Below are positions 4,205-64,000 of a stretch of 64,000 bases of DNA, piece after piece. The position numbers were made by a program, and so were the translations under genes. Under the pieces are notes generated by a model. That model saw only the letters and a program-made list of their open reading frames with translations, was not told the origin of the DNA and searched no databases. This DNA comes from Spirochaetota bacterium. GTDB lineage: Bacteria; Spirochaetota; UBA4802; UBA5550. The stretch is taken from the NCBI GenBank assembly GCA_963664815.2, contig CAXXHB010000003.1, forward strand, positions 416,001-480,000, in the 5' to 3' direction. Every line of letters begins with the position of its first letter. Position 1 is the stretch's first letter.

Positions 4205-4226
4205 TTTCGTTGCTCCTTTTAATTAT

Positions 4227-5015
4227 TTATATTTGTTTTATAATTTGCATTTCAGCCTTTTTACGCATAACATAACTCAAAATAGAAAAAGGAATAATGC
4301 CATATCTCATGTTCATCAGCAGCTTGTTTAACGGACGGTCCATCAGCCAGTGAACACGGGTACTGCATGCAGCTTTTAATACTGTTTTTGCGACATCCTC
4401 CGCGGTTATTGAAACTCTAACATTATCAATAAGTCCATGCGGGTTCTGTTGCACCATTGGTGTACTGACAAAATTCGGCATAATATCACAAACGTGTATG
4501 CCGTATCGCTGCCATTCCATATTTAATGCCTCCGTGAATCCTCTCACCCAGAACTTTGATGCAGAATATGCTGTCAGAGCGGGTGCAGCAATTATAGAAG
4601 AGGCAGATGCCATATTAATCACATGCGATTCTCTGGTATTCTTCAGATAGGGAAATGCATGATACGCACAGTTGAGAACACCCTTATTGTTTATATTGAG
4701 AATTGCATGCTGATCTTTCAGAGAAATATCTTCAAAATTATTAATTCGAAGTACACCCGCGTTATTGAATAATACATCAAATTTGCCGCCGGCTGCGGCG
4801 TTAAAATCAGATAATACGGAGGCAACCATCTTTTCATCTGTAACATCCAGATGTGCAGAAAAACCGGTTTTTCCCTTTAAATGCCTTTTAAGCAGATGCA
4901 GACCCCTTTTATTCACATCGGAGATTCCGACAAACCATCCTTTATCAGCAAACAGGATTGCCACCTCCCTGCCTATTCCGGCTGCGGCCCCGGTAATAAA
5001 TATGCTTTTCTTCAA
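4227..5015 (-). CDS. Short-chain dehydrogenase/reductase
   Basis: TGAAAGIG, NNAG, YSASK; TTG start. Confidence 0.92.
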   Translation of the reverse strand: MKKSIFITGAAAGIGREVAILFADKGWFVGISDVNKRGLHLLKRHLKGKTGFSAHLDVTDEKMVASVLSDFNAAAGGKFDVLFNNAGVLRINNFEDISLKDQHAILNINNKGVLNCAYHAFPYLKNTRESHVINMASASSIIAAPALTAYSASKFWVRGFTEALNMEWQRYGIHVCDIMPNFVSTPMVQQNPHGLIDNVRVSITAEDVAKTVLKAACSTRVHWLMDRPLNKLLMNMRYGIIPFSILSYVMRKKAEMQIIKQI

Positions 5016-5110
5016 ATTTATGCCTCTCTCTTTAATTGTTACCTGCTTCTGTATGCAGGAATAAAAATATCATCTTCAGAAATTCCGCTTAAAGATTTTA
5101 TAACATTTAA

Positions 5111-5190
5111 ATATTATGTAACTCATCTGTGTTAAACAGTCTTCTACTGGGTTAAGATAGATCGAACAATATAAATCTGGTTAATCTTTA
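5111..5190 (-). promoter_or_regulatory. Duplicated ~80-bp upstream element, copy 1 (upstream of SDR 5015)
   Basis: ATATTATGTAACTCATCT...CAGTCTTCTACTGG.TTAAGATA... aligns without gaps to 6320-6399. Confidence 0.7.
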
Positions 5191-5309
5191 TTGAGCAGCA
5201 GCTTCAAATGCAGAAAATATTTATGGAGAGAAGAAGGTAATTGATGGATATCATTCAAAATATTATTTAAGTAAATAATAAACAACGGGGAAGTTAAACA
5301 AAAAATCTG

Positions 5310-6185
5310 TTATTTTTGTAAGTTTAAATGCTGCTTGTTATTCTCAAGTAAGCGGATCATTTTATGGATATATTTATCACTGTCTATGATGCGATCTGTA
5401 GCCATGCTGAAAATTCCCCTGAACATTGATATGGGAGCCCATCGCTTTGGTGAGATGATGCGGGCTCTGCGGGATTCAACGCCGGCCACTACTGCGGCTG
5501 CTATAACATCGGGTTTAACCGGTTTTCTTAAATGGCCGGGAAATCCATGTTTGAGTAGATCTGTTGCTATAATGTTGCCTCCAAAAACAACTTCAGCAAT
5601 CGGAGTATCAACCCATCCCGGGAAAAGCACTCCTGCTGTAGCTCCTGTGCCCGCAAGCTCTGCACGTAACGTTCTGCCAAGCATTTCCACTGCCGCTTTT
5701 GAAGCTGCATAAGGTGCATTTATCATGCCGTTACAGAAAGCATAGATGGACGATGTTATCAATATATGACCTTTGGATTCAATGATGTGAGGGAGGCAAG
5801 CCTTGATGGTGTACCATACACCGAACAGATCAACATTGATAACCTTTTCGAACTCGTCGCAGCTGATTGTCAGAAGCGTCGTGGGATTGTTTGAGGTACT
5901 TGCGGAAATCCCCGCGTTTGCAAATGCCATGTCAAGTTTTCCAAATTTGCTGATAGCTTTATTCACCACTGATTCTGTCTCCGGCATACTGGTGACATCC
6001 ATTACAATTGGTAATACCCGCTCATTTTTCATTGAGAATGATATGCTGTCAAGTGCATCTTGATTCAGGTCAGTCAGAATAAGATTCGCACCATGAGCGT
6101 AAAATGCATCCGCAACTGCTTTACCAATTCCGCCAGATGCGCCGGTAATCAGTACTGTTTTTCCTTTCAGATTGAATGATGTCAT
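5310..6185 (-). CDS. Short-chain dehydrogenase/reductase
   Basis: TGASGGIG, ANAG, YAASK. Confidence 0.92.
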   Translation of the reverse strand: MTSFNLKGKTVLITGASGGIGKAVADAFYAHGANLILTDLNQDALDSISFSMKNERVLPIVMDVTSMPETESVVNKAISKFGKLDMAFANAGISASTSNNPTTLLTISCDEFEKVINVDLFGVWYTIKACLPHIIESKGHILITSSIYAFCNGMINAPYAASKAAVEMLGRTLRAELAGTGATAGVLFPGWVDTPIAEVVFGGNIIATDLLKHGFPGHLRKPVKPDVIAAAVVAGVESRRARIISPKRWAPISMFRGIFSMATDRIIDSDKYIHKMIRLLENNKQHLNLQK

Positions 6186-6319
6186 AATTTTTATTCTCCA
6201 TTGATTCTATAGCTAAAACCGCTTTTTTCAACATACTGCATAAAAATAACACGGCATATATTGTGCCGGTGCTAATATCTGTTTTATTACATTTTCTGGT
6301 TAAAATATTTTACCTGTTT

Positions 6320-6399
6320 ATATTATGTAACTCATCTCTATGATGCAGTCTTCTACTGGATTAAGATAAGCTGAATAATATAAATACGGTTAATTTTTT
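6320..6399 (-). promoter_or_regulatory. Duplicated ~80-bp upstream element, copy 2 (between SDR and the divergent AraC gene)
   Basis: Same sequence as 5111-5190 with scattered substitutions. Confidence 0.7.
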
Positions 6400-6484
6400 A
6401 TCAACTGCTCTGTCAAAACAGGGATATCAATAAATTAAAAATTTAATTGATTTTAATTTTAAATGATGAAAAATTATAAGCATC

Positions 6485-8098
6485 ATGAATACTGTTTTCC
6501 GGAAATTAATGTTCACTGGTATACTGATTTTTTTTGTTTCAGCAGTACCCGGCTGTATAAAGCATCCACCCGAAAAACATGCTGTAAATATTTCCGGCAA
6601 ATGGAAGATAATTAATGAAGATAATTTGAAATTTTCGAAGTCTGAATATGATGATTCTGATGCTGCTGTTATTGATCTCCCCGGAAACTGGATGAATTTA
6701 ATCCAAAAAAGTGAATCAATGACAACCCTGTTATGGTTGAGAAAAGCAGTTTATATTGATGATTCTTTTTCAAATTCAGAGCTTATACTGGAGTTAGGGA
6801 AGATCAGTGTGGCTGAAGAGGTATATTTTAACGGGTGTTTTATAGGGAGTACAGGTGGCATGCCTAAAGGTAATAAAACTATTGATTACCGCTTTGCCTG
6901 GCAAACTCCCAGATATTATCTGATACCAAAATTTCTAATTAAGTTCAATCAAAAAAATATTATATCAATCCGGGTATTTTCTCATGTAATAAATGGTGTA
7001 ACCGGAAATCTGCAAATCAGTGAAATGTGGAACGAATATCCGTACAGGTTAGGGGATTTAATGCCGGTTATGATTAATTATTTTTCTATAATAATTAATA
7101 TGTTTTTTTTATTTTTGTTCTTCATCCAATATTCCTATGACAGATCGAGATTGCTGTTTTTATATCTGGCTTTAACAGCCATGTCAGATGTTGTTTTAAG
7201 CCTCTGTGTTGTAAATTTTCCTTTCTATATAAGCGGTATGATCCGCTATAAAACGTTATTTATTGCGTATTCCTCCATTAATGTTTTGATGGCGCTGTTT
7301 ATGCAGGAGGTCTTTAATAGAAGATATAAGCATTCAACCTTGATTTTATTATTATTTTACTGCTTAAGCATAACCATTATTATTTTACCACAGACAACAA
7401 GAGTATATATAGGATATACCAGAATAGCAGTAACGATCTTTGCATTTGCATGCCAGGTGTATGCAATTACCGGTTTACTTTTATCAATAATAAAAAATCT
7501 TCATAAATACTGGCTTTTTTTATTTGTAGTACCGGTAGTACTGTCGACATTACGCAATGCCTATTATTTATTAATAATGAATTATGATGCAATATATATA
7601 TCTATATTCCTTCATGTCCCTATAATAATAACGATTTTTATTTTATTTTTATTTTATGATTTTGATTCGCAGAAACGAATTAATGAAACGATATTCCAGT
7701 CAATGAGAAAGAAGGCGCAGAGACTTCAGTATAACCTTTCCAGATCAAAGAAAACAAATGCAAAACTTCAGCCTAATGAAATAATATACAACCTGATCGA
7801 TTACATTGATATGAATTTTACCAAAACGTACAACAGAGCCGAACTGTCGAAGCAGTTTGGATTAAATGAAAACTATATGCTGCAGCTTTTTAAAAAAACA
7901 ACAGGTAAAACAATATCAAATTATATTAATACGAAACGCATTGATAAGTCCATTGAAATGATGGGTGAAAAAGATATTAAAATGATAGATATTGCGTATA
8001 ATATCGGCTTTGAAAATTACAATTTCTTTCACCGGCTCTTTAAACAGAAGACAGGTATGAGTCCGGGGCTTTTCCGGAAAAAATTTATAATTAAATAG
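6485..8098 (+). CDS. Membrane-anchored AraC regulator: extracytoplasmic jelly-roll (7TM-DISM-like) domain + ~7 TM + AraC HTH
   Basis: N-terminal signal/possible lipobox (VPGC); ISGKWK...WLRK...VYFNG jelly-roll pattern; hydrophobic helices; C-terminal LFKKTTG...IAYNIGFENYNFFHRLFKQKTGMSP. Confidence 0.88.
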   Translation: MNTVFRKLMFTGILIFFVSAVPGCIKHPPEKHAVNISGKWKIINEDNLKFSKSEYDDSDAAVIDLPGNWMNLIQKSESMTTLLWLRKAVYIDDSFSNSELILELGKISVAEEVYFNGCFIGSTGGMPKGNKTIDYRFAWQTPRYYLIPKFLIKFNQKNIISIRVFSHVINGVTGNLQISEMWNEYPYRLGDLMPVMINYFSIIINMFFLFLFFIQYSYDRSRLLFLYLALTAMSDVVLSLCVVNFPFYISGMIRYKTLFIAYSSINVLMALFMQEVFNRRYKHSTLILLLFYCLSITIIILPQTTRVYIGYTRIAVTIFAFACQVYAITGLLLSIIKNLHKYWLFLFVVPVVLSTLRNAYYLLIMNYDAIYISIFLHVPIIITIFILFLFYDFDSQKRINETIFQSMRKKAQRLQYNLSRSKKTNAKLQPNEIIYNLIDYIDMNFTKTYNRAELSKQFGLNENYMLQLFKKTTGKTISNYINTKRIDKSIEMMGEKDIKMIDIAYNIGFENYNFFHRLFKQKTGMSPGLFRKKFIIK

Positions 8099-11120: not shown

Positions 11121-12122
11121 ATGTTTTCAGGCAGGGATGTTTTACCACGGGTAGTTTTATTAAAAAGGAAGGAGTATACAAATAGAAAAGTATTCGTTTC
11201 CGTTCTTCTTACTGTTTTTATGCTTACAGCTTTATTGTCATGTGGCAGCGGATCATCCGGCGACAGCAATAATAACGGCAATAATAAAACAGTTACAATT
11301 TATACTTCGGGGATTGGTGCTGACAATTATGCCTGCTACTGGAAAGGGACAACAAAAACATCTTTGTCTACTTCTTTATCAGGTTCCATAGCCAAGACTA
11401 TCTATGTGGATAGTAGCGGCACGGTCTATACAGGAGGGGCTCCAACTGTGTTTACTGCAGGTTACTGGATAGGAACAACCTTTACTAGTCTGGGGGGAGA
11501 CGGAGGTGGTGTAGGAATATATGTAAGTAGCGACGGTACAGTTTATACAGGGGGACATTATAATTATAAAACCTGCTATTGGACCAATTCAGCAATAACT
11601 TATGTGGCGAATGGGGGGTATACATGTGCAATTTATGTAAGTAACGGTACAGTTTATAATGCAGGGATAAATCCCTCTTCAGTAGCCTGCTACTGGGCAG
11701 GAACAACTGAAACGCTGCTGACCTCATCAGGAGGGTATGCATATACAATCTATGTGAGCGATACAGGGACAGTCTATACTGCAGGCTATGACGGAAGCAG
11801 TATCGCCTGTTACTGGACAGGGACAACTAAAACGCAGCTTACAACCTCGGGCGGATGTGTCTATTCAATTTATGCGGGTGATGACGGAACAGTCTACACA
11901 GCCGGAAAAGACGGAAGCGGTTATGCCTGCTACTGGGTAGGTACAACGAAGACACAACTTGCATCAGGAGGGGAGGCAAGATCAATCTACGTGGACAGTG
12001 ACGGAGTTATCTATACTTCCGGGAAGGACGAAAGTAATTATGCCTGCTACTGGGTAGGTACAACGAAGACACAACTTGCAACAGGTGGAGAGGCTTATTC
12101 TATATATATTGATGAGGAATAA
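11121..12122 (+). CDS. Lipoprotein with seven ~38-aa repeats (probable 7-bladed beta-propeller)
   Basis: Lipobox LLSC; repeat consensus IYV-xxGTVYTxG-xxxxxACYWxGTTKTxL. Confidence 0.85.
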   Translation: MFSGRDVLPRVVLLKRKEYTNRKVFVSVLLTVFMLTALLSCGSGSSGDSNNNGNNKTVTIYTSGIGADNYACYWKGTTKTSLSTSLSGSIAKTIYVDSSGTVYTGGAPTVFTAGYWIGTTFTSLGGDGGGVGIYVSSDGTVYTGGHYNYKTCYWTNSAITYVANGGYTCAIYVSNGTVYNAGINPSSVACYWAGTTETLLTSSGGYAYTIYVSDTGTVYTAGYDGSSIACYWTGTTKTQLTTSGGCVYSIYAGDDGTVYTAGKDGSGYACYWVGTTKTQLASGGEARSIYVDSDGVIYTSGKDESNYACYWVGTTKTQLATGGEAYSIYIDEE

Positions 12123-52450: not shown

Positions 52451-53524
52451 TTACAGTTTGTTTTTATTTCTCTGCGCCTCCTCAATGAGTCTGTATACCT
52501 TTGAAACAAGCTGAGTCCTTGAATTCACATTCATTTTAAGGAAAAGGTTGTCAAGATGCCTCTTCACTGTGTTGACAGAAATACCCAATTCTGATGCGAT
52601 CTCCTTATTCTGCATACCTCTTTCAACGAACTGCAGAACTTCAACCTCCCTGTTTGAAAGAACTCCCCTGAACCTGGAAAACCCTGCAGGCTGCTGCATC
52701 TCCTCAAGAATAACGAGAGACTGCCCCACTTTAGAGCCAGGGATGGGGCAATATCCTGCGCTTAAATTATCAGCGTATGTTCTGCCTGATTCCCCCTGTT
52801 CTTTATGCCCTTTACTGAGTAAAAGTTTCAGATTCCCTGACGGATCATCTCTGCCAAGCGTACGCTCCGCAATAATCCTTGCGGCACTGTTTGCATACTG
52901 AGGGGAGTAGTCTGAATCAGTAATTATTATCCCCTGCCGCACCTGATCCATTTCATTACAAAACCGCTTTCTGAAATCTGATTTTTTACTATATGTGAGA
53001 GAATCTGAAACAGAGAGGCTCATAAACCGGCTGATTATTGAAACCGCCTTAAGATCGGTTTCGTTAAAAGCCCCTTCACCGACCTCTCTGCCGAAATTGA
53101 GAGTGCCTATAATATCCTGTCCGAAAATGAGAGGAGACTGCATTGCAAAATCGATAGACGCTGTTTTTACTATATTGTATACCGGATGATGCCGCCACCC
53201 CTCAAGCCCCAGAAGCGTCTGAGACTGGTATGGAGCTCTTATTTTTGTTATCCAGCCTCTCAGGGGGTCTACATCCCTTCCTTCGGCTTCATAATATTTT
53301 ATAAAATCCACATCAACGCCGCTTGCTGTAATACGGACCGGTTTTTTCTTTTCCGGTTTAAAAAAATAGAGCGCTGTTGCATGTGCCGGTATAAGGCGTG
53401 ATATTGAATTAAGATATTTACCCTCAAGCTCCTCAAGGGTTAAAGGAGAAAGTAAAGATGATATTATTTCTTCCAGAGAAGCCAGTACATCAAACTGATT
53501 TGAACTGTTAACTTTAAAATCCAT
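52451..53524 (-). CDS. GAF(+PAS-like) LuxR-family transcriptional regulator
   Basis: GAF (SPLIFGQDIIGTLNFGR...F); LSNREVEVL...GMQNKEIASELGISVNTVKRHL HTH. Confidence 0.92.
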   Translation of the reverse strand: MDFKVNSSNQFDVLASLEEIISSLLSPLTLEELEGKYLNSISRLIPAHATALYFFKPEKKKPVRITASGVDVDFIKYYEAEGRDVDPLRGWITKIRAPYQSQTLLGLEGWRHHPVYNIVKTASIDFAMQSPLIFGQDIIGTLNFGREVGEGAFNETDLKAVSIISRFMSLSVSDSLTYSKKSDFRKRFCNEMDQVRQGIIITDSDYSPQYANSAARIIAERTLGRDDPSGNLKLLLSKGHKEQGESGRTYADNLSAGYCPIPGSKVGQSLVILEEMQQPAGFSRFRGVLSNREVEVLQFVERGMQNKEIASELGISVNTVKRHLDNLFLKMNVNSRTQLVSKVYRLIEEAQRNKNKL

Positions 53525-53783: not shown

Positions 53784-56639
53784 ATGCGGTTATTTCATCC
53801 CATAAAACAGCCTGAACATGTTTTCATGGCCATCTGCTGCCTGGCGCTGCTCATGTTTACGGCATGCGGAGATAACAGCGGGAAAAAGAGGCTTCCCCCT
53901 GCAGAGAGGGGGGTAATTGACCTGAGAAACCTGGATTTTCAGAGGGATGGTCCGGTAAACCTTGACGGGGAGTGGGAGTTTTACCCCGGCTGTCTCTATA
54001 CCCCCGGTGATTTTGCAGGAAATAAAACAGAAAATGCGGTTTTTATAAAAGTACCGGGGATATGGAAAGATATTGCCCCCGGAGGGAATGCTCTTCCGTC
54101 AAAGGGGGAGGGAACGTACCGCCTGAAGATAATCTGCAGCCCGGATGAACAAAAGAAAGTCCTCTCCCTTTACCGTATATACTCGGCTTACAGTGTCTGG
54201 ATAAACGGGGTACATCTCTGTGAAAAGGGGATGGCCGATTCCACATCAAAGAGTGAAAAGAATTATGTATATATCCACAGCAAAACTACAGTGCCCTTCG
54301 TACCGGAAAACGGAATAAATGAAATAGTGCTTCAGGTTGTCAATTACGATCATGAGTCGGGGGGTATAGGGAGACCCCTTGAGCTGCAGAATGAAGAGAC
54401 CATGCTGCATGACAGGTTTGCAAGGCATACGGTGGAGATGATTATAGTGGGGCTGGTGCTCTTTTTTGCGATATCAAACCTGCTGCTCTACTTTTTCCGC
54501 AGCGATGATAAGGCAGCGCTCTATTCTGGTCTATTCTGTCTCTTCACAGCAGTAAACGTCTTTAACCTGAATATACCGATTCTTTCAGGACCGCTATACT
54601 GGCCGCGGAATCCATATCTTTCAAACTTCCTCACCGCTGTCCTTGTGGAACTTTTCAGCATGATATCGATCAGGTCAATTTTTCCTGAGGAGTTTTCAAC
54701 GTATGTCATGCGCTTAATCCAGGTGATCCTCATCCCGTTTTTTATTGTTCTTCCCTTCGTCGATTTCAGAATATCGGAAAAGATGATGCTGGTATTTTTC
54801 ATATTAACTATTTTGTTTCTTACTTACGGAATGTATGTTCTTGTGAAAGCAATAATTAACCGCAGGGATGATGCCATTCTCTTTTTTATCGGTTTTGCAC
54901 CGGCCTATGCAGGGGGTATCAATGATGCCTTTTACGCCTTGTGGATTCTCAAAACCTCAAATGTTTTCCATTACGGAGCAACTATATTATGTATTACTAT
55001 AACTTTTATAATTGCACGCCGTTTTTCCAGAACCATGCAGAGGCTTTCAGACGATCTTATTGAAAAGAACATCTCCCTTGAGAAGCTTGACAGAATCAAG
55101 GATCAGCTCCTGGCCAATACCTCACATGAGCTGCGCACCCCCCTTCACGGTATTATAGGTCTTTCCGAAACAATGCTTGACGGCACGGCGGGCAGCCTGT
55201 CACCCGGGGCGCGTGAGAACCTCTCCCTTATAGCATCCAGCGGGCACAGGCTTGCAAACATGGTTAACGACCTGCTGGACATGGCAATGATTCAGGATAA
55301 GGGGATTAACCTGAATCTTCGCGCCCTTAACATCTGTGCCTTAAGCGATATGGTGGTGAAGCTTTCACTCCCCCTGGTCGGCGGCAAGCCGGTTGAAATT
55401 ATAAACAGCATATCTGCCGGTATACCTCCTGTACTTGCCGATGAAGACCGGATACGGCAGGTGCTGCACAACCTTGTGGGTAATGCAATCAAGTTTACGG
55501 CCAGCGGAGTAATTGAATTGTCCTCCAGGGTAATTCCCCCTGACGATGAAACTGGCGAAAGCGGTATTGTTGAGATCAGCGTATCCGATACCGGGATAGG
55601 TGTTCCGGCTGAGTACAGGGAGAGTATATTCGAGGTGTACAGCCAGGTTGATACGGGTGATACACGGTCATACTCCGGTACTGGGCTGGGGCTTGCAATT
55701 GCGAAGCAGATAATTGAACTGCACGGCGGAACCATAAGGGTTGCGCCCGGGATGGAATGCGGCTCGGTATTTACATTTTCTCTTCCGGTATCGGAGACCC
55801 TCACTGCGGAGGATGCAGGCGAGGTTATAATTGAGAGTATGAATGACATGTCTGCAGGGGTCGGCATGGTGAATAACCATGCCTCTGCAGCGGGGCCGGG
55901 AGATGATGCTTTCGCCGGGAACCCTGTGCTGCTGGTTGTGGATGATGACCCTGTTAATATACGGCTTCTTCAGAACTGCCTGGAGCCAAGGAATTGCGTG
56001 GTCAAAACGGCAACTGACGGGGCCGGCGCTCTCGAGATACTGGAGAGGGACGGCACCATAGACCTTGTGCTCCTTGATATCATGATGCCGGTGATGTCAG
56101 GTTACGAGGTGTGCCGGAGGATACGCATGAGACGGTCGCCGGAGGAGCTGCCGGTTATTATGCTGACCGCGAAAAACATGATGTCGGATATAGATGCAGC
56201 CTTCGATGCAGGTGCAAATGACTACATAGTAAAACCATTTCATCTGAGTGAACTCCTTGTCCGGTCAGCCTCAATGTTAAAACTCAGAAGAGTCAAAAAG
56301 TCAGCTGCAAGCGGTATATCCATACACAGCAGGGGAACTGTGCATTCATTCACATTCAGCGAGATAATATATGTTACCTCCAGTGCAAAGAACATAATAA
56401 TCCATGCAGTTGACGCCGATACAGAACTCCCGGTGATGATGAAGGATATAGCTGACCGCCTCCCCCCTGACATGTTTGTCAGGATCCATAAATGTCACAT
56501 TATCAACATAAGGTTTATCCGCTCATTGAACCATGTAATATCAGGACGTTACCGGGTATTGCTTCGCGACGAGGATGACACATATTTACCCGTCGGGCCG
56601 GCATTTCTTGAGTCACTCAGAAAAAAAATTCAGATATGA
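53784..56639 (+). CDS. Hybrid sensor kinase 1: jelly-roll sensor-7TM-HisKA-HATPase-REC-LytTR
   Basis: Lipobox-like FTAC; NLDGEWEFY; SHELRTP; NLVGNAIKF; DTGIG; GTGLGL; VVDDD/LLDIMMP/DYIVKP; FVRIHKCHIIN (LytTR). Start placed where homology with the paralog begins; exact start uncertain. Confidence 0.92.
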   Translation: MRLFHPIKQPEHVFMAICCLALLMFTACGDNSGKKRLPPAERGVIDLRNLDFQRDGPVNLDGEWEFYPGCLYTPGDFAGNKTENAVFIKVPGIWKDIAPGGNALPSKGEGTYRLKIICSPDEQKKVLSLYRIYSAYSVWINGVHLCEKGMADSTSKSEKNYVYIHSKTTVPFVPENGINEIVLQVVNYDHESGGIGRPLELQNEETMLHDRFARHTVEMIIVGLVLFFAISNLLLYFFRSDDKAALYSGLFCLFTAVNVFNLNIPILSGPLYWPRNPYLSNFLTAVLVELFSMISIRSIFPEEFSTYVMRLIQVILIPFFIVLPFVDFRISEKMMLVFFILTILFLTYGMYVLVKAIINRRDDAILFFIGFAPAYAGGINDAFYALWILKTSNVFHYGATILCITITFIIARRFSRTMQRLSDDLIEKNISLEKLDRIKDQLLANTSHELRTPLHGIIGLSETMLDGTAGSLSPGARENLSLIASSGHRLANMVNDLLDMAMIQDKGINLNLRALNICALSDMVVKLSLPLVGGKPVEIINSISAGIPPVLADEDRIRQVLHNLVGNAIKFTASGVIELSSRVIPPDDETGESGIVEISVSDTGIGVPAEYRESIFEVYSQVDTGDTRSYSGTGLGLAIAKQIIELHGGTIRVAPGMECGSVFTFSLPVSETLTAEDAGEVIIESMNDMSAGVGMVNNHASAAGPGDDAFAGNPVLLVVDDDPVNIRLLQNCLEPRNCVVKTATDGAGALEILERDGTIDLVLLDIMMPVMSGYEVCRRIRMRRSPEELPVIMLTAKNMMSDIDAAFDAGANDYIVKPFHLSELLVRSASMLKLRRVKKSAASGISIHSRGTVHSFTFSEIIYVTSSAKNIIIHAVDADTELPVMMKDIADRLPPDMFVRIHKCHIINIRFIRSLNHVISGRYRVLLRDEDDTYLPVGPAFLESLRKKIQI

Positions 56640-56642
56640 CGC

Positions 56643-56688
56643 ACAGTTCATTCCCCCGGAAGAACAGTTTATTCCGGCGCCATTGACA
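56643..56688 (+). promoter_or_regulatory. LytTR-type direct-repeat box + -35
   Basis: ACAGTTCAT-N12-ACAGTTTAT-N10-TTGACA. Confidence 0.8.
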
Positions 56689-56749
56689 GAACAGCCTGCA
56701 GGATGGTAAGTAGTTACTGTTAGAAAAAGCGTAGTAACTGGCAGGGTGT

Positions 56750-59671
56750 ATGTATAACCTCGGTATTAGGAAACTCTTTCCCGGCTTCATCTGCCCCTCT
56801 GTTATAAAAACCGGAGTGCGGTTATTTCATTCCATAAAACAGCCTGAACATGTTTTCATGGCCATCTGCTGCCTGGCGCTGCTCCTGTTTACGGCATGCG
56901 GAGATAAAAGCGGGAAAAAGAGGCTCCCCTGTGCAGAGAGGGGGGTAATTGACCTGAGAAACCTGGATTTTCAGAGGAATGGTTCGGTAAACCTTGACGG
57001 GGAGTGGGAGTTCTGCCCCGGCCGTCTCTATACCCCCGGTGATTTTGCGGGAAATAAAACAGAAAATTCGGTTTTTATAAAAGTACCGGGGATGTGGAAA
57101 GATATTACCCCCGGAGGGAATGCTCTTCCGTCAAAGGGGGAGGGAACATACCGCCTGAAGATAATCTGCAGCCCGGATGAACAAAAGAAAGTCATCTCCC
57201 TCTACCGCATCTACTCGGCTTACAGTGTCTGGATAAACGGGGTACATCTCTGTGAAAAGGGGATGGCCGATTCCACCTCAAAGAGTGAAAAGAATTATGT
57301 ATATATCCACAGCAAAACTACAGTGCCCTTCGTACCGGAAAACGGAATAAATGAAATAGTGCTTCAGGTTGTCAATTACGATCATGAGTCGGGGGGTATA
57401 GGGAGACCCCTTGAGCTGCAGAATGAAGAGACCATGCTGCATGACAGGTTTGTAAGGCATACGGTGGAGATGATCATAGTGGGGCTGGTGCTCTTTTTTG
57501 CGATATCAAACCTGCTGCTCTACTTTTTCCGCAGTGATGATAAGGCAGCGCTCTATTCCGGTCTATTCTGTCTCTTCACGGCAGTAAACGTCTTTAACCT
57601 GAATATACCGATACTTTCAGGACCGCTATACTGGACGCGGAATCCCTATATTATTAATTTTGAATCTGTTATCCTTATAGTATTTTTCAACCTTATGTCA
57701 CTCAGAACTATTTTCCCTGATGAATTCTCAACATATATCCTGTACTTCCTTCAGGCAATGCTGCTCCTTTTTTTTGCCGTTCTTCCATTTATCGATTTCG
57801 GAACATCGGAAAAAGTGATGCCGGTCTTTTTCATATTATCACTCTTCTCTCTTACTTACGGACTGTATATTCTTGTGAAAGCAATAATTAACCGCAGGGA
57901 TGACGCCATTCTCTTTTTAACCGGTTTTGCACCGGCATATGCAGGTGGCATAAACGATGCACTGTATGCTCTGTGGATTTTCAAAACCACAAACCTCTAT
58001 CATTACGGGGGGACTGTATTATGTATTATTGTGACCTTTATAGTCGCACGCCGCTTTTCCAGAACCATGCAGAGGCTTTCAGACGATCTTATTGTAAAAA
58101 ATATCTCCCTTGAGAAACTTGACAGGATCAAGGATCAGCTTCTGGCCAATACCTCGCACGAGCTGCGCACCCCGCTTCACGGGATTATAGGCCTTTCCGA
58201 AACAATGCTTGACGGCACGGCTGGCAGCCTGTCACCCGTGGCGCGTGAGAACCTCTCCCTTATAGCATCCAGCGGGCACAGGCTTGCGAATATGGTTAAC
58301 GATCTGCTTGATATGGCCAGAATACAGAGCAGGGGATTTGACCTGAATATCCGCAGTGTTGATCTTTTTACTCTCAGTGAAACCATAGTAAAGCTTTCAC
58401 TCCCGCTGACAGGGGATAGGCCGGTTGAAATCATAAACAGCATCAGTCCCGAAACGCCGCCGGTACATGCCGATGAAAACCGTATAAAACAGGTGCTGCA
58501 TAACCTTGTGGGCAATGCAGTGAAGTTCACGCTGAAAGGGAAGATTGAGCTCTCGGCGGCGGTTATCTCTCCTGATGAATGTGTGGATGGAAGAGGTTTT
58601 GTTGAAGTCAGTATATCCGATACCGGGATCGGGGTTCCGGCAGAGCACCGGGAGAGTATATTCGAGGCATACAGCCAGGTTGATACAGGTGATACGCGTT
58701 CATACTCCGGTACGGGACTTGGGCTTTCAATTGCGAAGCAGATAGTTGAACTGCATGGCGGAACAATAAAAGTTATTCCGGGGATTGGATGCGGTTCGGT
58801 ATTTATATTCTCTCTCCCCCTTGCTGTGAATATTTCCGGGAAGAAAGATGCGGCGGCAGCAGCTGAAGGCATAAATGATCTGCCGCCGGAAAGTGATCCC
58901 GTGTATATAAACAGCCGGACTGACGGGTCAATTAATGGCTTCAGCGGTCTGAACTCTGTGATACTTATCGTGGATGATGATCCGGTGAATGTAAGGATGC
59001 TGAAAAAGCTGTTTGAATCAAAAAACTGCATGGTAAAGAGCGCCTTTGACGGAATAAACGCGCTTGAAATTCTGGAGAGAGACGATACCATAGATCTTGT
59101 ACTGCTTGATATAATGATACCGGTAATATCGGGTTACGAGGTGTGCAGGAGGATACGCATAAGACGGTCGCCGGAAGAACTTCCGGTTATTATGCTGACC
59201 GCAAAAAATATGATGTCTGACATAGATGCAGCCTTCAATGCCGGAGCAAATGACTACATAGTGAAGCCGTTTCGTTTAAGTGAACTGCTGGCCCGCTCTG
59301 CCTCAATGATAAAACTCAGGAAGGTCAGAAAGACCGCTGCAGCCAGTATATCCATACAGAGCAGGGGTACTGTATATACATTCACATTTGACGAGATAGT
59401 CTATATTACCTCATCTGCAAAGAATATCATAGTTCATACAGTTGACGCTGATACCGTCCTCAACGTTATGATGAAAGATATGGCTGACCGGCTTCCATCC
59501 GACATGTTTTTCAGGATTCATAAAAGCCATATTGTCAACATAAGATATATAAGCAGATTAAAACATGTTATATCCGGGCGTTACCGGGTATATCTTTGCG
59601 ATGTGGATAACACGGAATTGCCGGTCGGCCCGGCATTTCTTGAATCCCTCAGAAAAAAAATTCAGAAATGA
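56750..59671 (+). CDS. Hybrid sensor kinase 2, tandem paralog with the same architecture ending in LytTR
   Basis: Same motifs; FFRIHKSHIVN; homology to paralog begins at GTG 56816. Confidence 0.92.
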   Translation: MYNLGIRKLFPGFICPSVIKTGVRLFHSIKQPEHVFMAICCLALLLFTACGDKSGKKRLPCAERGVIDLRNLDFQRNGSVNLDGEWEFCPGRLYTPGDFAGNKTENSVFIKVPGMWKDITPGGNALPSKGEGTYRLKIICSPDEQKKVISLYRIYSAYSVWINGVHLCEKGMADSTSKSEKNYVYIHSKTTVPFVPENGINEIVLQVVNYDHESGGIGRPLELQNEETMLHDRFVRHTVEMIIVGLVLFFAISNLLLYFFRSDDKAALYSGLFCLFTAVNVFNLNIPILSGPLYWTRNPYIINFESVILIVFFNLMSLRTIFPDEFSTYILYFLQAMLLLFFAVLPFIDFGTSEKVMPVFFILSLFSLTYGLYILVKAIINRRDDAILFLTGFAPAYAGGINDALYALWIFKTTNLYHYGGTVLCIIVTFIVARRFSRTMQRLSDDLIVKNISLEKLDRIKDQLLANTSHELRTPLHGIIGLSETMLDGTAGSLSPVARENLSLIASSGHRLANMVNDLLDMARIQSRGFDLNIRSVDLFTLSETIVKLSLPLTGDRPVEIINSISPETPPVHADENRIKQVLHNLVGNAVKFTLKGKIELSAAVISPDECVDGRGFVEVSISDTGIGVPAEHRESIFEAYSQVDTGDTRSYSGTGLGLSIAKQIVELHGGTIKVIPGIGCGSVFIFSLPLAVNISGKKDAAAAAEGINDLPPESDPVYINSRTDGSINGFSGLNSVILIVDDDPVNVRMLKKLFESKNCMVKSAFDGINALEILERDDTIDLVLLDIMIPVISGYEVCRRIRIRRSPEELPVIMLTAKNMMSDIDAAFNAGANDYIVKPFRLSELLARSASMIKLRKVRKTAAASISIQSRGTVYTFTFDEIVYITSSAKNIIVHTVDADTVLNVMMKDMADRLPSDMFFRIHKSHIVNIRYISRLKHVISGRYRVYLCDVDNTELPVGPAFLESLRKKIQK

Positions 59672-59674
59672 CGC

Positions 59675-59745
59675 ACAGTTCATTCCTCAGGAAGAACAGT
59701 TCATTCCGGCGCCATTGACAAGCGGAGTTTTATAATATTTATACT
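59675..59745 (+). promoter_or_regulatory. LytTR-type direct-repeat box + promoter
   Basis: ACAGTTCAT-N12-ACAGTTCAT-N10-TTGACA-N19-TATACT. Confidence 0.82.
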
Positions 59746-59858
59746 ATATATGGCTGATGATCATTTTTTAAGAAGCAGTATAACATGGGAAGAGAATCAT
59801 AATAATAAAATGGAAATAATTTGGAAAGAGATGTTGAAAGAGAAGTGTGGAAAGAGAA

Positions 59859-60863
59859 ATGAAGATAAAAACCGGTCAGGGGATTATTAAAATAAATATT
59901 AAATTTCTGATAATTATGCTTTCAGGGCTGCTGCTGCTGATTTCATGCTCAGAGCAGAAGGCCTATATCGCATTTTATACCGGCAGTGTGACTATCCGGA
60001 AACCGGGAGGAACGACGGCCGGTGTCCGGGTTAAAGATCGGGTAAATGACGGCGACATATTAAAAACAGGTAAAAAATCGTGCATCATAATACAAAATAC
60101 GGAAGGTCTTATTATAAGGTTTGAGCAGAATACCGAGGCACAGATTATATCATTCAATAATCCAGCTAAAAAGGGGGTTAGCCTTAACAGGGGGAAAGTT
60201 CTCTCAAATGTTTCAAAGCTGAAGAAGGGGGGGGAATATTATGTAAAAACCCCTACAACCGTGGCTTCGGTAAGAGGTACCGAGTTCCTTACAACATTCA
60301 ATGGCAAATATTCAACTGTCGCTGTCGGCGACGGTAAGGTGAGTGTCAAGAAAATAGATGTGAGCGGGAATGAGAATATCGGAAAAAATGAAAAAAATTA
60401 TAGGATCGGGAATATTGATAAGATTGATAAGATTGATAAGATTAAAAAAAACAAAGATAATGAAGAGAAGATTGTAGAGAAGGGATTTACTGCAGTGATC
60501 GGGAAAAAATCCATTGTGAGGTTTAGGAAAACAAACAGGATTGAAAAACTTGAACTTTCGAAGATAAAAAAAACCCCCGGTGTTGAAACAATAGAGAAGA
60601 AAACCACTGAAGAGATGAATGAGATATTTAAGGAAACTGAAAAAAAAGATAAAAAGATAAATGATCAAATAAAAGAGATTACAGGGCTTACCCCCGGCGA
60701 AATGAGGGCCATGTACGGGAGGATAGATACACTCTCGCTGTATGATGGAAGGGTGCTGCAGGGTGTAATAGCCTCCCGGGGGAGTGTATATAAGATATTA
60801 ACACAGTCCGGAATAATGATGGTGGATTCAAAGGATATAAAAGGGACGGAAACGAGGAGATAG
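59859..60863 (+). CDS. FecR-domain lipoprotein
   Basis: Lipobox LISC; VKTPTTVASVRGTEF...VGDGKVSV; Lys-rich linker with (ATTGATAAG)x3. Confidence 0.87.
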   Translation: MKIKTGQGIIKINIKFLIIMLSGLLLLISCSEQKAYIAFYTGSVTIRKPGGTTAGVRVKDRVNDGDILKTGKKSCIIIQNTEGLIIRFEQNTEAQIISFNNPAKKGVSLNRGKVLSNVSKLKKGGEYYVKTPTTVASVRGTEFLTTFNGKYSTVAVGDGKVSVKKIDVSGNENIGKNEKNYRIGNIDKIDKIDKIKKNKDNEEKIVEKGFTAVIGKKSIVRFRKTNRIEKLELSKIKKTPGVETIEKKTTEEMNEIFKETEKKDKKINDQIKEITGLTPGEMRAMYGRIDTLSLYDGRVLQGVIASRGSVYKILTQSGIMMVDSKDIKGTETRR

Positions 60864-60941
60864 ACATGTTTACGCCGCTTTTATATACATTTCCGGAAGA
60901 TTATAACCAGGCATGTTGAAGTGAAATAAATTGTCAGGAAA

Positions 60942-62372
60942 ATGAGATTGAAAAGAGGAAAATTGCTGAAGCTGTCAATGGCAGCGGCTTTAATTTTCAC
61001 CATCATCAGTGAAAAGCCGCTCCACGCAGAATACGTGTTTAAAAACGACGGGTCGATAATCCAGGGTACTATTGTGAATGATTTTCCGACAAGCATCTCG
61101 GTGAAAAAGATGGATGATGCCGTTGAACAGGTGAACCGCAAAGACATAATCAGAATAATCTATACCGAGCTTTACCTCGGAAAGGTATACGCAAGGCTGA
61201 CAACGGGTGAAATCGTTGAAGGGTTCATGGTGTACGAAGACAGGGACAACTACTTTTTCCGCAAAGATCTTGCAAAACCGGAGGAGTTTACAATACCCCG
61301 CATAAAGGTCATGTTTATATCTCATACAAACCCCACAGATGTAAGGGGTAAACCCTCTACCGATTTCATAACAGTGACATGGAGCCCGCCGTTCAAGCCG
61401 GCAAAGTTTTTCAGGTTATATATCCGTGACGTGTTAAACAAAGAGGAGAACTTCAGGGTTGCGGGTGAAACAAATGAAACAGCCTTTATTGTTAAAAACC
61501 TGCGTAAAAGCTGGACTTATGAATTCTACGCCACGGCAATCTCCGATTCGGGGGAGGAATCTCTCCCCAGCGAAAAAGTCACGGTTAGCACGCTCCCTGA
61601 ACAGGTGAAAAACCTTCTCCTCAGCGAGGAGCTGTCGCCGGACGGGAAGAAGGTTACTTTAACATTCAGATGGGAAAACGTGGCAGATCCGGAGAGCAGG
61701 GTAAAATTGTACGCAGTCTATGAAATCGAAAATGGGGAGAGGAAGAAGAGAGGGACATCAGAAGGTAAAGAGTTTGTGATAAAGGATTATCCCGCGGAGG
61801 GGAGGCACTGGTTTTCAGTAGTGGCTGTAAATGATGTATTCACTGAATCGGATGAGGTAAAAGCCGTGTATGATGCCGGTTATAAAATATATACAAGGGG
61901 CTTTATGACATATCTTTACCCCATGGGAGCTATGAAGGACCTGGCTACTTCCGGGTACGGAATTCTAATGGAACCGGGGATTTCATGGAAAAGATACAAT
62001 TTCGGTTTTGAGACCGGGTTATTGACCTTCAGAGGGACTGATTGCATAAAAAGCATGAAGATGATTCCTTTCCTTTTTACGGCGGATTACAACAAGACCC
62101 TTCCGGGTTCCTTTACGTTAAAACCGGTGGTCAAGGCCGGATGGAGCCTGGATATGGTGGAATATGTTTTTTTAGACCCTGCAAATCCGCTGATAGAGGG
62201 TACAGGTGAAAAAAGCAGTTTTGATCCTGTGATTTCATTAGGTGTAAACATTAAGTACAGGTTTAAGGATAATATCGATTTTTCAGGTGGATTTGAGTAT
62301 GCCTCGATATTTCAGGACGGCGGGAGGCTCTCATTTGCCGGCATCTCTCTGGGGGTGTGTTATACTTTCTAA
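60942..62372 (+). CDS. Secreted protein with two fibronectin-III domains and a C-terminal outer-membrane beta-barrel
   Basis: Signal peptide; VTWSPP...YEFYATAI..SGEES; FRW...FSVVAVN; alternating beta-strands ending LGVCYTF. Confidence 0.75.
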   Translation: MRLKRGKLLKLSMAAALIFTIISEKPLHAEYVFKNDGSIIQGTIVNDFPTSISVKKMDDAVEQVNRKDIIRIIYTELYLGKVYARLTTGEIVEGFMVYEDRDNYFFRKDLAKPEEFTIPRIKVMFISHTNPTDVRGKPSTDFITVTWSPPFKPAKFFRLYIRDVLNKEENFRVAGETNETAFIVKNLRKSWTYEFYATAISDSGEESLPSEKVTVSTLPEQVKNLLLSEELSPDGKKVTLTFRWENVADPESRVKLYAVYEIENGERKKRGTSEGKEFVIKDYPAEGRHWFSVVAVNDVFTESDEVKAVYDAGYKIYTRGFMTYLYPMGAMKDLATSGYGILMEPGISWKRYNFGFETGLLTFRGTDCIKSMKMIPFLFTADYNKTLPGSFTLKPVVKAGWSLDMVEYVFLDPANPLIEGTGEKSSFDPVISLGVNIKYRFKDNIDFSGGFEYASIFQDGGRLSFAGISLGVCYTF

Positions 62373-62464
62373 AATTAACAGGTGTCACCTGGCCGGATAT
62401 TCTTCGGCCATTAAGGTGACTGTGGAGAGGATGAATGCTCTTTTTTATTATACGGTGGAATACT

Positions 62465-64000
62465 ATGAAGAAAACAGAATTCCTGCATAATGCTGAAAGG
62501 ATATTTCTGATATGTATAGTTCTGATGCTTTCCCTGTGCGGCTGCGGCAACTCCTTTTTTTCTGCAGAGGACTATCTGACCGGCCCGGTTAACGGTATAG
62601 GTCTTAAATCCTCCACATCCCTTGTAAGCGGGGGTACCGAACAGCTCTATCCGGTTGTCTCCCCCCCTAAGACTTCAAACAAAAGCGTTACATGGACAAG
62701 CAGCGGCAGCTCTGTTGTGGCGGTGGACAGCAGCGGGCTTATTACAGCCGTTGCGGCGGTGGCTCATGGTGAGACAAAGAGCGCGGTAATTACGGCGACA
62801 ACGGCTGAAGGGGGTTACAGTACACAGTGTGCGGTTACGGTTGTGGAAAAACCTGTGCCGGTAACGGGGGTAACGCTGAATAAAAACGTTTCATATCTTC
62901 TGACAGGAAATTCAGAGACCCTGCGTTCAGCAATTTCCCCCTCTGCAGCCACAAACCAGAAAGTCACATGGTCAAGCAGCAACAGCCTTGTTGCCTCGGT
63001 TAATCAGGAGGGCACGGTTACAACGGGAACAAATACGGGTCAGACGACAATTACAGTTACTACAGAGGATGGAAGCCTGACGGCATCATGCCTGTTTTAC
63101 GTGTCATTGACCCCTGTACAGGTAACGGGGGTTTCGCTTAACAAATCGGCGACGATAGTTGCTGCCGGGAAGACTGAAACGCTCTTTGCAACCATATCGC
63201 CGTACAACTCAACAAACCAGAACATCACGTGGTCAAGTGACAATCCAGCTGCAGCCTCTGTAAATGCATTCGGCATTGTGACCGGAATTTCAGATGGTAC
63301 AGCCAATATTACCGTAACAACAGCTGACGGGAACTACACCGGTACCTGCGCGGTATCCGTAGTGACATCGCCGGTGGCGGTGACAGGGGTAAGCCTTACC
63401 CCGTCATCAAGTACTATACAGGTCGGGAAACAGGCAACTCTTACGGCGGCAGTAACACCGGCCAATGCAACAAACCAGAACCTTTCATGGCAGAGCAGCA
63501 ACAGCCTTATAGCTACGGTGGACAGCAGCGGTCTTGTTACAGGGTTGTCAGCCGGGGGAGCGACAATAACCGTGACAACACTGGACGGAGGGTATTCAAA
63601 GAGCTGTTCTGTAACAGTGACAAATGCAGTAACCTATTCCGTTATATATAATGCCAACAATGCATCGGGGACTGTGCCCGCTTCACAGTCATATTTACCC
63701 GGGGCGACAGTGGTTGTGAGAAACAGCAGTTACCTGACTAAGACCAATTACAGCTTTGCCGGCTGGAGTACTACATCTACGGGGAGTGTGGCCTATACTG
63801 CCGGATCGGAATTCACCATGGGGTCATCGGATATTACACTCTATGCGGTGTGGAGTGCTGATCCCACATATACAGTGACCTATGACGGCAGTTTCCAGGA
63901 TGGCGGAACAGTGCCTGCTGATCCGAAACATTACCTGTCCGGCTCAACTGTGACTGTACTGGGTAACACGGAAGGTCTTTACCGGAATGCTCTTGTTTTT
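62465..64000 (+). CDS. Surface lipoprotein with four Big_2 Ig-like domains followed by Listeria-Bacteroides (InlB B-type) repeats; runs off the window
   Basis: Absent from the ORF track because there is no stop in the window. Manual translation: MKKTEF...LSLCGCGN; repeats VTGVxL...ATNQxVTWSSSN..VAxV...ITVTTxDG; then YSVIYNAN...YSFAGWST. Confidence 0.9.
   Translation, partial: MKKTEFLHNAERIFLICIVLMLSLCGCGNSFFSAEDYLTGPVNGIGLKSSTSLVSGGTEQLYPVVSPPKTSNKSVTWTSSGSSVVAVDSSGLITAVAAVAHGETKSAVITATTAEGGYSTQCAVTVVEKPVPVTGVTLNKNVSYLLTGNSETLRSAISPSAATNQKVTWSSSNSLVASVNQEGTVTTGTNTGQTTITVTTEDGSLTASCLFYVSLTPVQVTGVSLNKSATIVAAGKTETLFATISPYNSTNQNITWSSDNPAAASVNAFGIVTGISDGTANITVTTADGNYTGTCAVSVVTSPVAVTGVSLTPSSSTIQVGKQATLTAAVTPANATNQNLSWQSSNSLIATVDSSGLVTGLSAGGATITVTTLDGGYSKSCSVTVTNAVTYSVIYNANNASGTVPASQSYLPGATVVVRNSSYLTKTNYSFAGWSTTSTGSVAYTAGSEFTMGSSDITLYAVWSADPTYTVTYDGSFQDGGTVPADPKHYLSGSTVTVLGNTEGLYRNALVF

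Follow-up and report, generated by a model that had tools for sequence, protein, structure and literature searches.

A conserved, putative operator-promoter element beside genes of an uncharacterized, order-restricted family of fused kinase-LytTR proteins in Spirochaetota

Introduction

LytTR-type transcription regulators have been studied as free proteins in quorum and nutrient sensing, and hybrid kinase-regulators, in which sensor, kinase and output share one chain, have been characterized in depth only where the output is of the AraC type, in Bacteroides, and, as a single case, in ChiS. Here we analyze a family of fused membrane proteins that joins both fields, together with a direct-repeat DNA element, the presumed operator, that lies beside their genes. 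We started from a stretch of 64,000 nucleotides (hereafter, the window) of the 5.2-Mb genome of a Spirochaetota bacterium (assembly GCA_963664815.2, contig CAXXHB010000003.1, positions 416,001 to 480,000; G000:C3:416001-480000), in which two such genes, HK1 and HK2, stand in tandem, each followed directly by the element and by a putative promoter. A preliminary description of the window had proposed a portable unit of regulator and downstream promoter.

The closest described operators are those of the AgrA/ComE/PlnC type. The AgrA-class LytTR operator consists of direct repeats directly upstream of the -35 hexamer (PMC4227749, in part). The sites studied here have in common with these systems the LytTR output, two direct half-sites with a 21-bp period and a position directly upstream of a sigma-70 -35, and the half-site has a core similar to the AgrA box. 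AgrA, ComE and PlnC, however, are free cytoplasmic regulators, whereas the LytTR domain considered here is the C-terminus of its own membrane kinase. Furthermore, the conserved half-site is about 15 nt long, the operator mostly lies past the stop codon of the regulator gene rather than before an autoinduced operon, and no peptide pheromone genes were seen in the open reading frame (ORF) lists of the locus.

The hybrid two-component systems (HTCS) of Bacteroides and other hybrid transmembrane transcription regulators (TTRs) also combine sensor, membrane anchor, HisKA, HATPase, receiver and DNA-binding domain in one chain, and are likewise encoded beside the genes that they are thought to control. 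HTCS proteins have an AraC-type output and a periplasmic beta-propeller/Y_Y_Y sensor, whereas the present family has a LytTR output and a predicted jelly roll on a 7TMR-DISM module. In a survey of 50,302 TTRs, hybrids made up 8.2%, and Spirochaetota were among the TTR-rich phyla (PMC10269533, in part). The supplementary table of hybrid TTRs in that survey holds 23 rows with LytTR and includes five kinase-REC-LytTR fusions, one with the exact domain order found here; the main-text passages considered here do not discuss these fusions (PMC10269533, in part). This table fits the remark in the preliminary description that characterized hybrid regulators end in AraC and not in LytTR.

In Vibrio cholerae, the hybrid sensor kinase ChiS is membrane-bound and at the same time binds DNA as a transcription regulator, with a cryptic helix-turn-helix output (bioRxiv 10.1101/2020.11.18.389122, in part). 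It resembles the present proteins as a membrane hybrid kinase doubling as transcription regulator, and differs in its output, a helix-turn-helix as opposed to LytTR. JGI automatic annotation names several members of our family 'ChiS', which appears to reflect the shared kinase-receiver core only.

The transporter BtsT is a member of the CstA family. In Escherichia coli, the LytTR regulators of the BtsS/BtsR and PyrS/PyrR systems activate pyruvate transporter genes, and CstA is a pyruvate transporter in this species (PMC10653868, in part). The operator beside HK3, a third kinase of our genome, likewise faces a gene with a CstA-family part. However, BtsS/BtsR and PyrS/PyrR each consist of two separate proteins with a 5TMR-LYT sensor, whereas HK3 is fused and has a 7TMR-DISM sensor, and its putative target is a CstA-Cache-HAMP-cyclase-HATPase fusion. 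A full-text literature search, with subscription journals outside its coverage, found no paper treating a fused kinase-LytTR protein, and the combination of fused kinase and LytTR operator appears to be essentially undescribed.

Results

A direct repeat beside each of three fused kinases

HK1 (53784-56639, + strand) has 951 aa counted from its ATG, the frame being open from 53748. Its paralog HK2 (56750-59671, + strand) follows immediately, and a third paralog, HK3 (G000:C3:486668-489547), starts 6.7 kb beyond the window end. All three contain five Pfam domains (7TMR-DISM_7TM, HisKA, HATPase_c, REC and LytTR) above the cut-off, the 7TMR-DISM_7TM module (PF07695) with E values of 1e-17 to 1e-14. 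A membrane anchor, HisKA, HATPase_c, a receiver and a DNA-binding domain are combined in one polypeptide, as expected of a hybrid two-component regulator; Pfam found no AraC/HTH_18 domain in these proteins, but LytTR instead. In an alignment of 39 family members, the phospho-acceptors His470 and D787 are invariant, as are N589, D742/D743, T817 and K839 and the ATP-binding box residues D624/G626/G628 and G654/G656/G658.

The two kinase genes of the window had been said to carry, 3 nt past each stop codon, a 9-nt unit repeated with a 21-bp period and followed 10 nt further on by a -35 hexamer. Exact matches to this pattern were indeed found at 56643-56672 and 59675-59704, each starting 3 nt past the stop (two in the window, as opposed to 0.01 expected from shuffles), and at both sites a -35-like hexamer lies 10 nt past the second 9-mer. 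Two direct repeats of about 9 bp, some 12 bp apart, are characteristic of the AgrA/ComE class. The repeated unit itself is larger than was described: alignment of the sites determined a half-site of about 15 nt, comprising the 9-mer and conserved flanks. Thus defined, operator 1 (56640-56675, + strand) and operator 2 (59672-59707, + strand) each consist of two 15-nt half-sites with a 21-bp period and begin with the first base past the HK1 and HK2 stop codons, respectively. Operator 1 is followed by a putative HK2 promoter (56683-56712, + strand), in which a consensus -35 (56683-56688) and a weak -10-like hexamer (56707-56712) are separated by an 18-nt spacer. Behind operator 2 lies a putative promoter of a surface-protein operon (59715-59745, + strand), with a consensus -35 (59715-59720) and, at the long spacing of 19 nt noted previously, a -10-like hexamer (59740-59745).

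The third site is located in the intergenic region upstream of HK3, on the opposite strand. Its spacer sequence differs, but the 21-bp period is kept; the distance to a consensus -35 is unchanged, and a good -10 lies 17 nt further. It points at a divergent gene (G000:C3:482228-486328, L231:2228-6328, - strand) encoding a CstA-Cache-HAMP-cyclase-HATPase_c fusion of 1366 aa, the first 574 residues of which correspond to a complete CstA-family transporter.

The whole 5.2-Mb genome was scanned for dimers with a weight matrix built from the 15-nt half-site. Three sites stood out, operator 2 (43.7), operator 1 (42.3) and the site upstream of HK3 (40.9), while the next best scored 21.0 and the reversed genome yielded nothing at 16 or above. 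No further strong site was found in the genome, and each of its three fused kinases has one of the three beside it. Since all three were part of the training set, the informative part of this result is that the genome holds no other strong site. In particular, the scan found no operator of this type in front of HK1.

The element recurs beside homologous kinases in the same order

We searched 61 genomes, namely our own and 60 relatives of its order, and found matches reaching the LytTR end in at least 17. A search with the REC-LytTR part against 5.8 billion proteins retrieved the combination of HisKA, HATPase_c, REC and LytTR in 82 of the 120 matches listed; 79 of these also have 7TMR-DISM_7TM, which is the architecture that the preliminary description had suggested looking for. 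All 12 organism-named rows among the matches listed are metagenome-assembled genomes of Spirochaetota. Among 301 genomes sampled evenly across the phylum, fused frames of at least 900 aa were detected in 12, all from the same order, whereas the frames in the 35 matching genomes of family f15 are all about 250 aa long, as expected of regulators that stand alone. As judged from these searches, the fused kinase-LytTR family appears to be confined to one order of Spirochaetota. A search of genome contigs with the full-length alignment as query returned 79 loci with unrelated hybrid kinases from many phyla, none of which matched to query residue 973; as it had selected generic kinase motifs, it was of no use for taxonomy or sites.

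For the analysis of the flanking DNA, 27 loci holding 29 homologous kinases were fetched; together with HK1, HK2 and HK3 these make up a tally of 32 homologs in 21 related genomes. A de novo rule without any other sequence prior (a 9-mer repeated at an offset of 21 with no more than one mismatch, then a -35 core) gave nine clusters in the 321 kb of homolog loci, our own region included, compared with two in the reversed sequence and a mean of 0.25 (maximum two) in 20 block shuffles. A loose core expression matched 13 times, as against twice in the reversed sequence, and the matrix scan detected 26 sites scoring 18 or more, while the reversed sequence had none even at 12. Nine sites scoring at least 25 were outside the training set, and in the held-out close orthologs (L144-L147) a site was located 3-6 nt past the kinase's own stop in four out of four.

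A site adjoins the gene in 25 of the 32 kinases: it follows the kinase's own stop in the same direction in 16, lies upstream and points divergently in seven (one of them weak), and heads an operon that ends in the kinase in two. This distribution bears out the proposal of a portable regulator and downstream-promoter unit, as do the restriction of strong sites in our own genome to three and the end of similarity between the two window copies at the -35 hexamer. The conservation of the neighborhood that had also been expected holds for the site beside the kinase, but not for the genes behind it, which elsewhere are others. Thirteen of the 16 post-stop sites begin 0-6 nt past the stop, two begin at 41 and 73 nt, and one overlaps the last codons. 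In L046:6815-6868 (genome G006), and also in the metagenome contig L166, the reading frame runs through the operator, the last kinase codons overlapping the presumed binding site. Sites recur beside homologs of only 46-59% identity in other families of the order. In an additional metagenome scan, 21 of 80 loci belonged to the family, most of them duplicating genome loci already counted; of six new contigs, with only 1.5 kb of flank available, four had a post-stop site and two did not.

One of the held-out orthologs (L147:4058-7026, G255:C44) is split into two ORFs (4058-5362 and 5380-7026), a split due to a frameshift, to a stop or to faulty assembly; a high-scoring operator is still present 3 nt past its stop.

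Promoter geometry and half-site variants

The 21-bp period is identical in all 24 strong sites. The distal half-site is better conserved than the proximal one, and the spacer is variable. As judged by eye, about 20 of 25 sites have a -35-like hexamer 7 (±1) nt past the proximal 15-mer, and most orthologous sites have a -10 of the TAnnnT type at 16-18 nt, so that the long spacer noted behind operator 2 is not a general feature.

At the sixth position of the half-site, most sites have either A in both halves or C in both, and the two half-sites thus change in concert between genomes. The identity of the distal base corresponds to the residue that follows the invariant Gly960 (HK2 numbering) of the LytTR domain: with A, this residue is proline in 10 of 12 kinases; with C, it is alanine, serine or arginine in 10 of 11, giving an overall concordance of 20 of 23. 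Four sister contrasts on the tree all go the same way. The residue after Gly960 (Pro961 in HK2) presumably corresponds to the arginine of the LytTR C-terminal motif, R233 of AgrA; the AgrA alignment obtained by a PDB sequence search with the LytTR part stops before this C-terminal DNA-contact region. The exchange R233A abolishes AgrA binding (PMC4227749, in part). We regard the co-variation as suggestive only. A predicted operator with fixed promoter geometry, together with many natural variants of the operator bases and of a candidate DNA-contact residue that vary jointly, offers a ready-made system for the study of LytTR specificity.

Proposed mode of action

Taken together, these data establish a real, conserved cis-regulatory element tied to an uncharacterized family of fused kinases. 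We consider it probable that these kinases are one-polypeptide two-component systems, in which a LytTR dimer bound to the operator activates the adjoining sigma-70 promoter beside the kinase's own gene. We infer the individual steps from what is known of the protein families, and the same applies to DNA binding, activation as opposed to repression, the ligand and the transcription starts. The extracytoplasmic jelly roll on the 7TMR-DISM module would sense a signal, probably a carbohydrate; the HisKA/HATPase core would then autophosphorylate, and phosphotransfer within the protein or dimer would bring the phosphoryl group onto the fused receiver. With the kinase as a dimer, its two C-terminal LytTR domains would then occupy the two 15-nt half-sites, which lie two helical turns from each other, and RNA polymerase would be recruited to the -35 beside them. 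That binding would activate a sigma-70-type promoter is suggested by the end of the proximal half-site 7 (±1) nt before a near-consensus -35.

For our genome, this would mean that HK1 acts on site 1, driving HK2, and that HK2 probably acts on site 1 too, resulting in positive feedback; HK1 and HK2 would both act on site 2 and hence on the operon behind it, while HK3 would act on site 3 and the CstA-cyclase gene. A cascade from HK1 to HK2 is plausible, as site 1 precedes HK2 and sites 1 and 2 are near-identical, but cross-activation and autoregulation of HK2 are equally possible on these grounds. A generic scan found no terminator-like site between either window kinase stop and the next gene, and read-through should therefore provide the genes behind the operators (the cargo) with a basal level of expression.

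The apparent regulon of each kinase is one adjacent promoter. With an operator that abuts the stop codon in 13 of the 16 post-stop cases, this makes the family a clean test case for a response that is brought to the membrane, and why and how a response reaches the membrane is posed as an open question in the survey of transmembrane regulators (PMC10269533, in part). A more specific version, which we offer tentatively and regard as rather doubtful, is that action is strictly local in cis: the membrane-tethered regulator would act on the one adjacent promoter at its own stop, and the cassette would capture cargo. The 7TM part would be inserted co-translationally while the gene is being transcribed, and LytTR would be the last part to leave the ribosome; since the gene would still be transcribed at that moment, the DNA nearest to the new molecule would be the stretch past its own stop. 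New cargo could be captured by recombination between -35 and -10, and HK1-HK2, as well as an array of four cassettes in genome G039, would form daisy chains. If true, this would provide a genetic handle on target-finding by membrane-bound transcription factors.

Alternative explanations

Several observations weigh against activation through the adjoining operator. Fifteen of the sites scored by the weight matrix had served to train it, and seven of the 32 homologs, one of them with a weak variant, have no clear site within about 4 kb. An independent-pairs test of the co-variation found four pairs on supported branches, of which two or three go in the same direction (median p 0.25, not significant); opposite-direction pairs were absent from most of 200 random pairings, and a few had one. 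The metagenome contig L156 is discordant with the pattern of residue and base. A generic sigma-70 scan, which allowed spacers of 16-18 nt, lists neither window promoter, because the -10 is weak at site 1 and spaced by 19 nt at site 2. Finally, a near-consensus -35 is combined with a good -10 at a spacing of 17 nt in many orthologous sites. Promoters of this kind might be active on their own, in which case the regulator could modulate rather than switch them, or even repress.

This last point leads to the alternative that the elements are real LytTR operators at which the bound kinase represses, or acts as a roadblock where its own gene ends and so shields the cargo from read-through or from a near-consensus promoter that would otherwise be constitutive. 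Most orthologous promoters, with spacings of 16-18 nt, have no obvious need for an activator, the 13 sites that lie 0-6 nt from the stop are where a roadblock would act on read-through, and the lack of a terminator-like site before the next gene would leave room for such a function. However, the operator is located wholly upstream of the -35 at a fixed distance, a position that corresponds to that of AgrA-type activators (PMC4227749, in part) and not to that of repressors that occlude -35 or -10; nine of 25 sites are divergent or head an operon, where no kinase transcript arrives from upstream that could be blocked; and both window promoters have a poor or mis-spaced -10. We consider a negative role unlikely.

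A separate, soluble LytTR response regulator might bind the operators, the fused kinases being mere neighbors, and the genome does encode three further LytTR proteins with open frames of 278, 378 and 1311 aa. However, all three strong sites in the genome are beside fused kinases and none is elsewhere; linkage to fused homologs in 25 of 32 cases also argues for the fused proteins, as does the box variant, which in 20 of 23 kinases goes with a residue in the LytTR domain encoded next to it. This explanation is quite improbable.

It is highly improbable that the repeats are a functionless, neutral by-product of the tandem duplication of HK1 and HK2, although both window sites are inside the duplicated block, which includes the 3' end of the gene. 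An alignment of the two copies shows three differences in the 51 nt past the stop, whereas the last 240 coding bases are only about 80% identical, and the similarity stops exactly at the last base of the -35 hexamer, which suggests that the block past the stop is under selection. The existence of an independent third site with another spacer likewise indicates more than a duplication relic, as does the recurrence of sites in other families of the order with controls near zero.

The notion that the element acts as RNA, forming a hairpin at the 3' end of the kinase transcript or serving as its terminator or attenuator, can be largely discounted. In the window copies, the first half-site can pair through its end with the beginning of the second, giving an imperfect 8-bp stem with a 3-nt loop, but this pairing is missing from our third site and many orthologs. 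RNAalifold found no conserved pairs in 24 aligned sites, no T-run follows the repeat, and nine sites are not downstream of any kinase gene; we accordingly read the element as DNA.

Sensor domain and paralog divergence

HK1 and HK2 are 78% identical (746 of 951 residues), but this identity is a mosaic: the sensor domain and the surroundings of the H-box reach about 94%, whereas the later transmembrane helices and the linker between kinase and receiver are far less alike, a pattern that suggests gene conversion between the tandem copies. Because the sensor domains are 94% identical, compared with 78% overall, HK1 and HK2 probably sense the same signal.

The N-terminus of the fused kinases consists of a lipoprotein-like signal sequence and an extracytoplasmic domain of 187 residues. 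The architecture reported in the preliminary description was confirmed by Pfam for 7TM, HisKA, HATPase, REC and LytTR, whereas the sensor was identified by its predicted fold only: no Pfam domain, 7TMR-DISMED2 included, matched the extracytoplasmic region even at E 10. One distant relative, P0082, does have 7TMR-DISMED2 (PF07696), a domain described as a jelly-roll fold. An AlphaFold2 model of the sensor, based on 21 homologs (mean predicted local confidence, pLDDT, 83.4; predicted template modeling score, pTM, 0.83), had its best structural matches among glycoside hydrolase family 2 enzymes (E 5.5e-7, TM 0.5-0.62). The shared part is, we assume, the N-terminal sugar-binding jelly roll of these enzymes. 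Given this resemblance to sugar-binding jelly rolls, a carbohydrate is our best guess for the signal.

Genes behind the operators

In the window, operator 2 precedes three genes on the + strand, whose annotation as FecR, fn3/barrel and Big_2 proteins was upheld by Pfam. The first (59847-60863) encodes a protein that starts with a lipoprotein-type signal sequence and has its FecR domain from residue 72 onward; it is without the cytoplasmic anti-sigma N-terminal domain and membrane span. The second (60942-62372) encodes a secreted fn3 protein with a C-terminal beta-barrel of the outer-membrane protein type, and the third (62435-64000, continuing beyond the window; G000:C3:478435-481089) a Big_2/Flg_new repeat surface protein of 884 aa in the genome. 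The C-terminus of the latter, beyond the window end, is long, glycine-rich and of low complexity.

To characterize the cargo more widely, Pfam was applied to 34 ORFs downstream of sites in 14 loci and to our own genes. Besides our genome, the FecR/fn3/Big_2-Flg_new operon was found behind a site in only one other genome examined, G004, which is of the same genus. The proposal that the FecR lipoprotein and the fn3 barrel relay a surface signal back to the sensor is consequently left without support, although cargo proteins may affect the signal that the sensor receives. Among seven proteins scanned around the locus there was neither an extracytoplasmic function (ECF) sigma factor nor a TonB-dependent transducer; the only sigma-like matches were weak helix-turn-helix overlaps in a LuxR/GerE protein.

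Proteins with cyclase domains are encoded behind sites in G006, G053 and G037, as in the HK3 target, and large Flg_new/Flg_new_2 repeat proteins in four tandem kinase-site-cargo cassettes on one G039 contig. Other sites precede genes for an FG-GAP protein (G031), an NHL protein (G036), a DUF5018 protein (G022), Lcl_C proteins followed by the kinase itself (G014, G012) and, as the second gene, a methyl-accepting chemotaxis protein (G014); InlB-type repeat proteins are also among the cargo elsewhere, and in G049 and G046 there was no Pfam match above the cut-off. Since the cargo varies between loci, the conserved unit comprises the kinase, the operator and the -35, and the cargo is exchangeable. 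For uncultured Spirochaetota, this predicts that large surface repeat proteins and cyclase genes are under the control of such kinases. The four G039 cassettes (G039:C17:1-32000; L051, L052) are all on one strand, and three of their repeat proteins contain DUF5122, PD40 or DUF285.

Further observations concern the surroundings of the LytTR genes and the window. The same genome encodes a STAND-like protein of 1308 aa with an N-terminal AAA_16 ATPase and a C-terminal LytTR domain (L232:618-4544, G000:C3:2206117-2210043), near which the genome matrix scan found no operator of the type studied here. A further match to the 9-nt repeat pattern in the window, with two mismatches, is located at 11628; it lies, together with single copies of the 9-mer, in an apparently repetitive coding stretch (11538-11780) and seems to be unrelated to the operators. 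Upstream of HK1 and divergent from it, a LuxR/GerE-type regulator of 357 aa is encoded at 52451-53524 (- strand).

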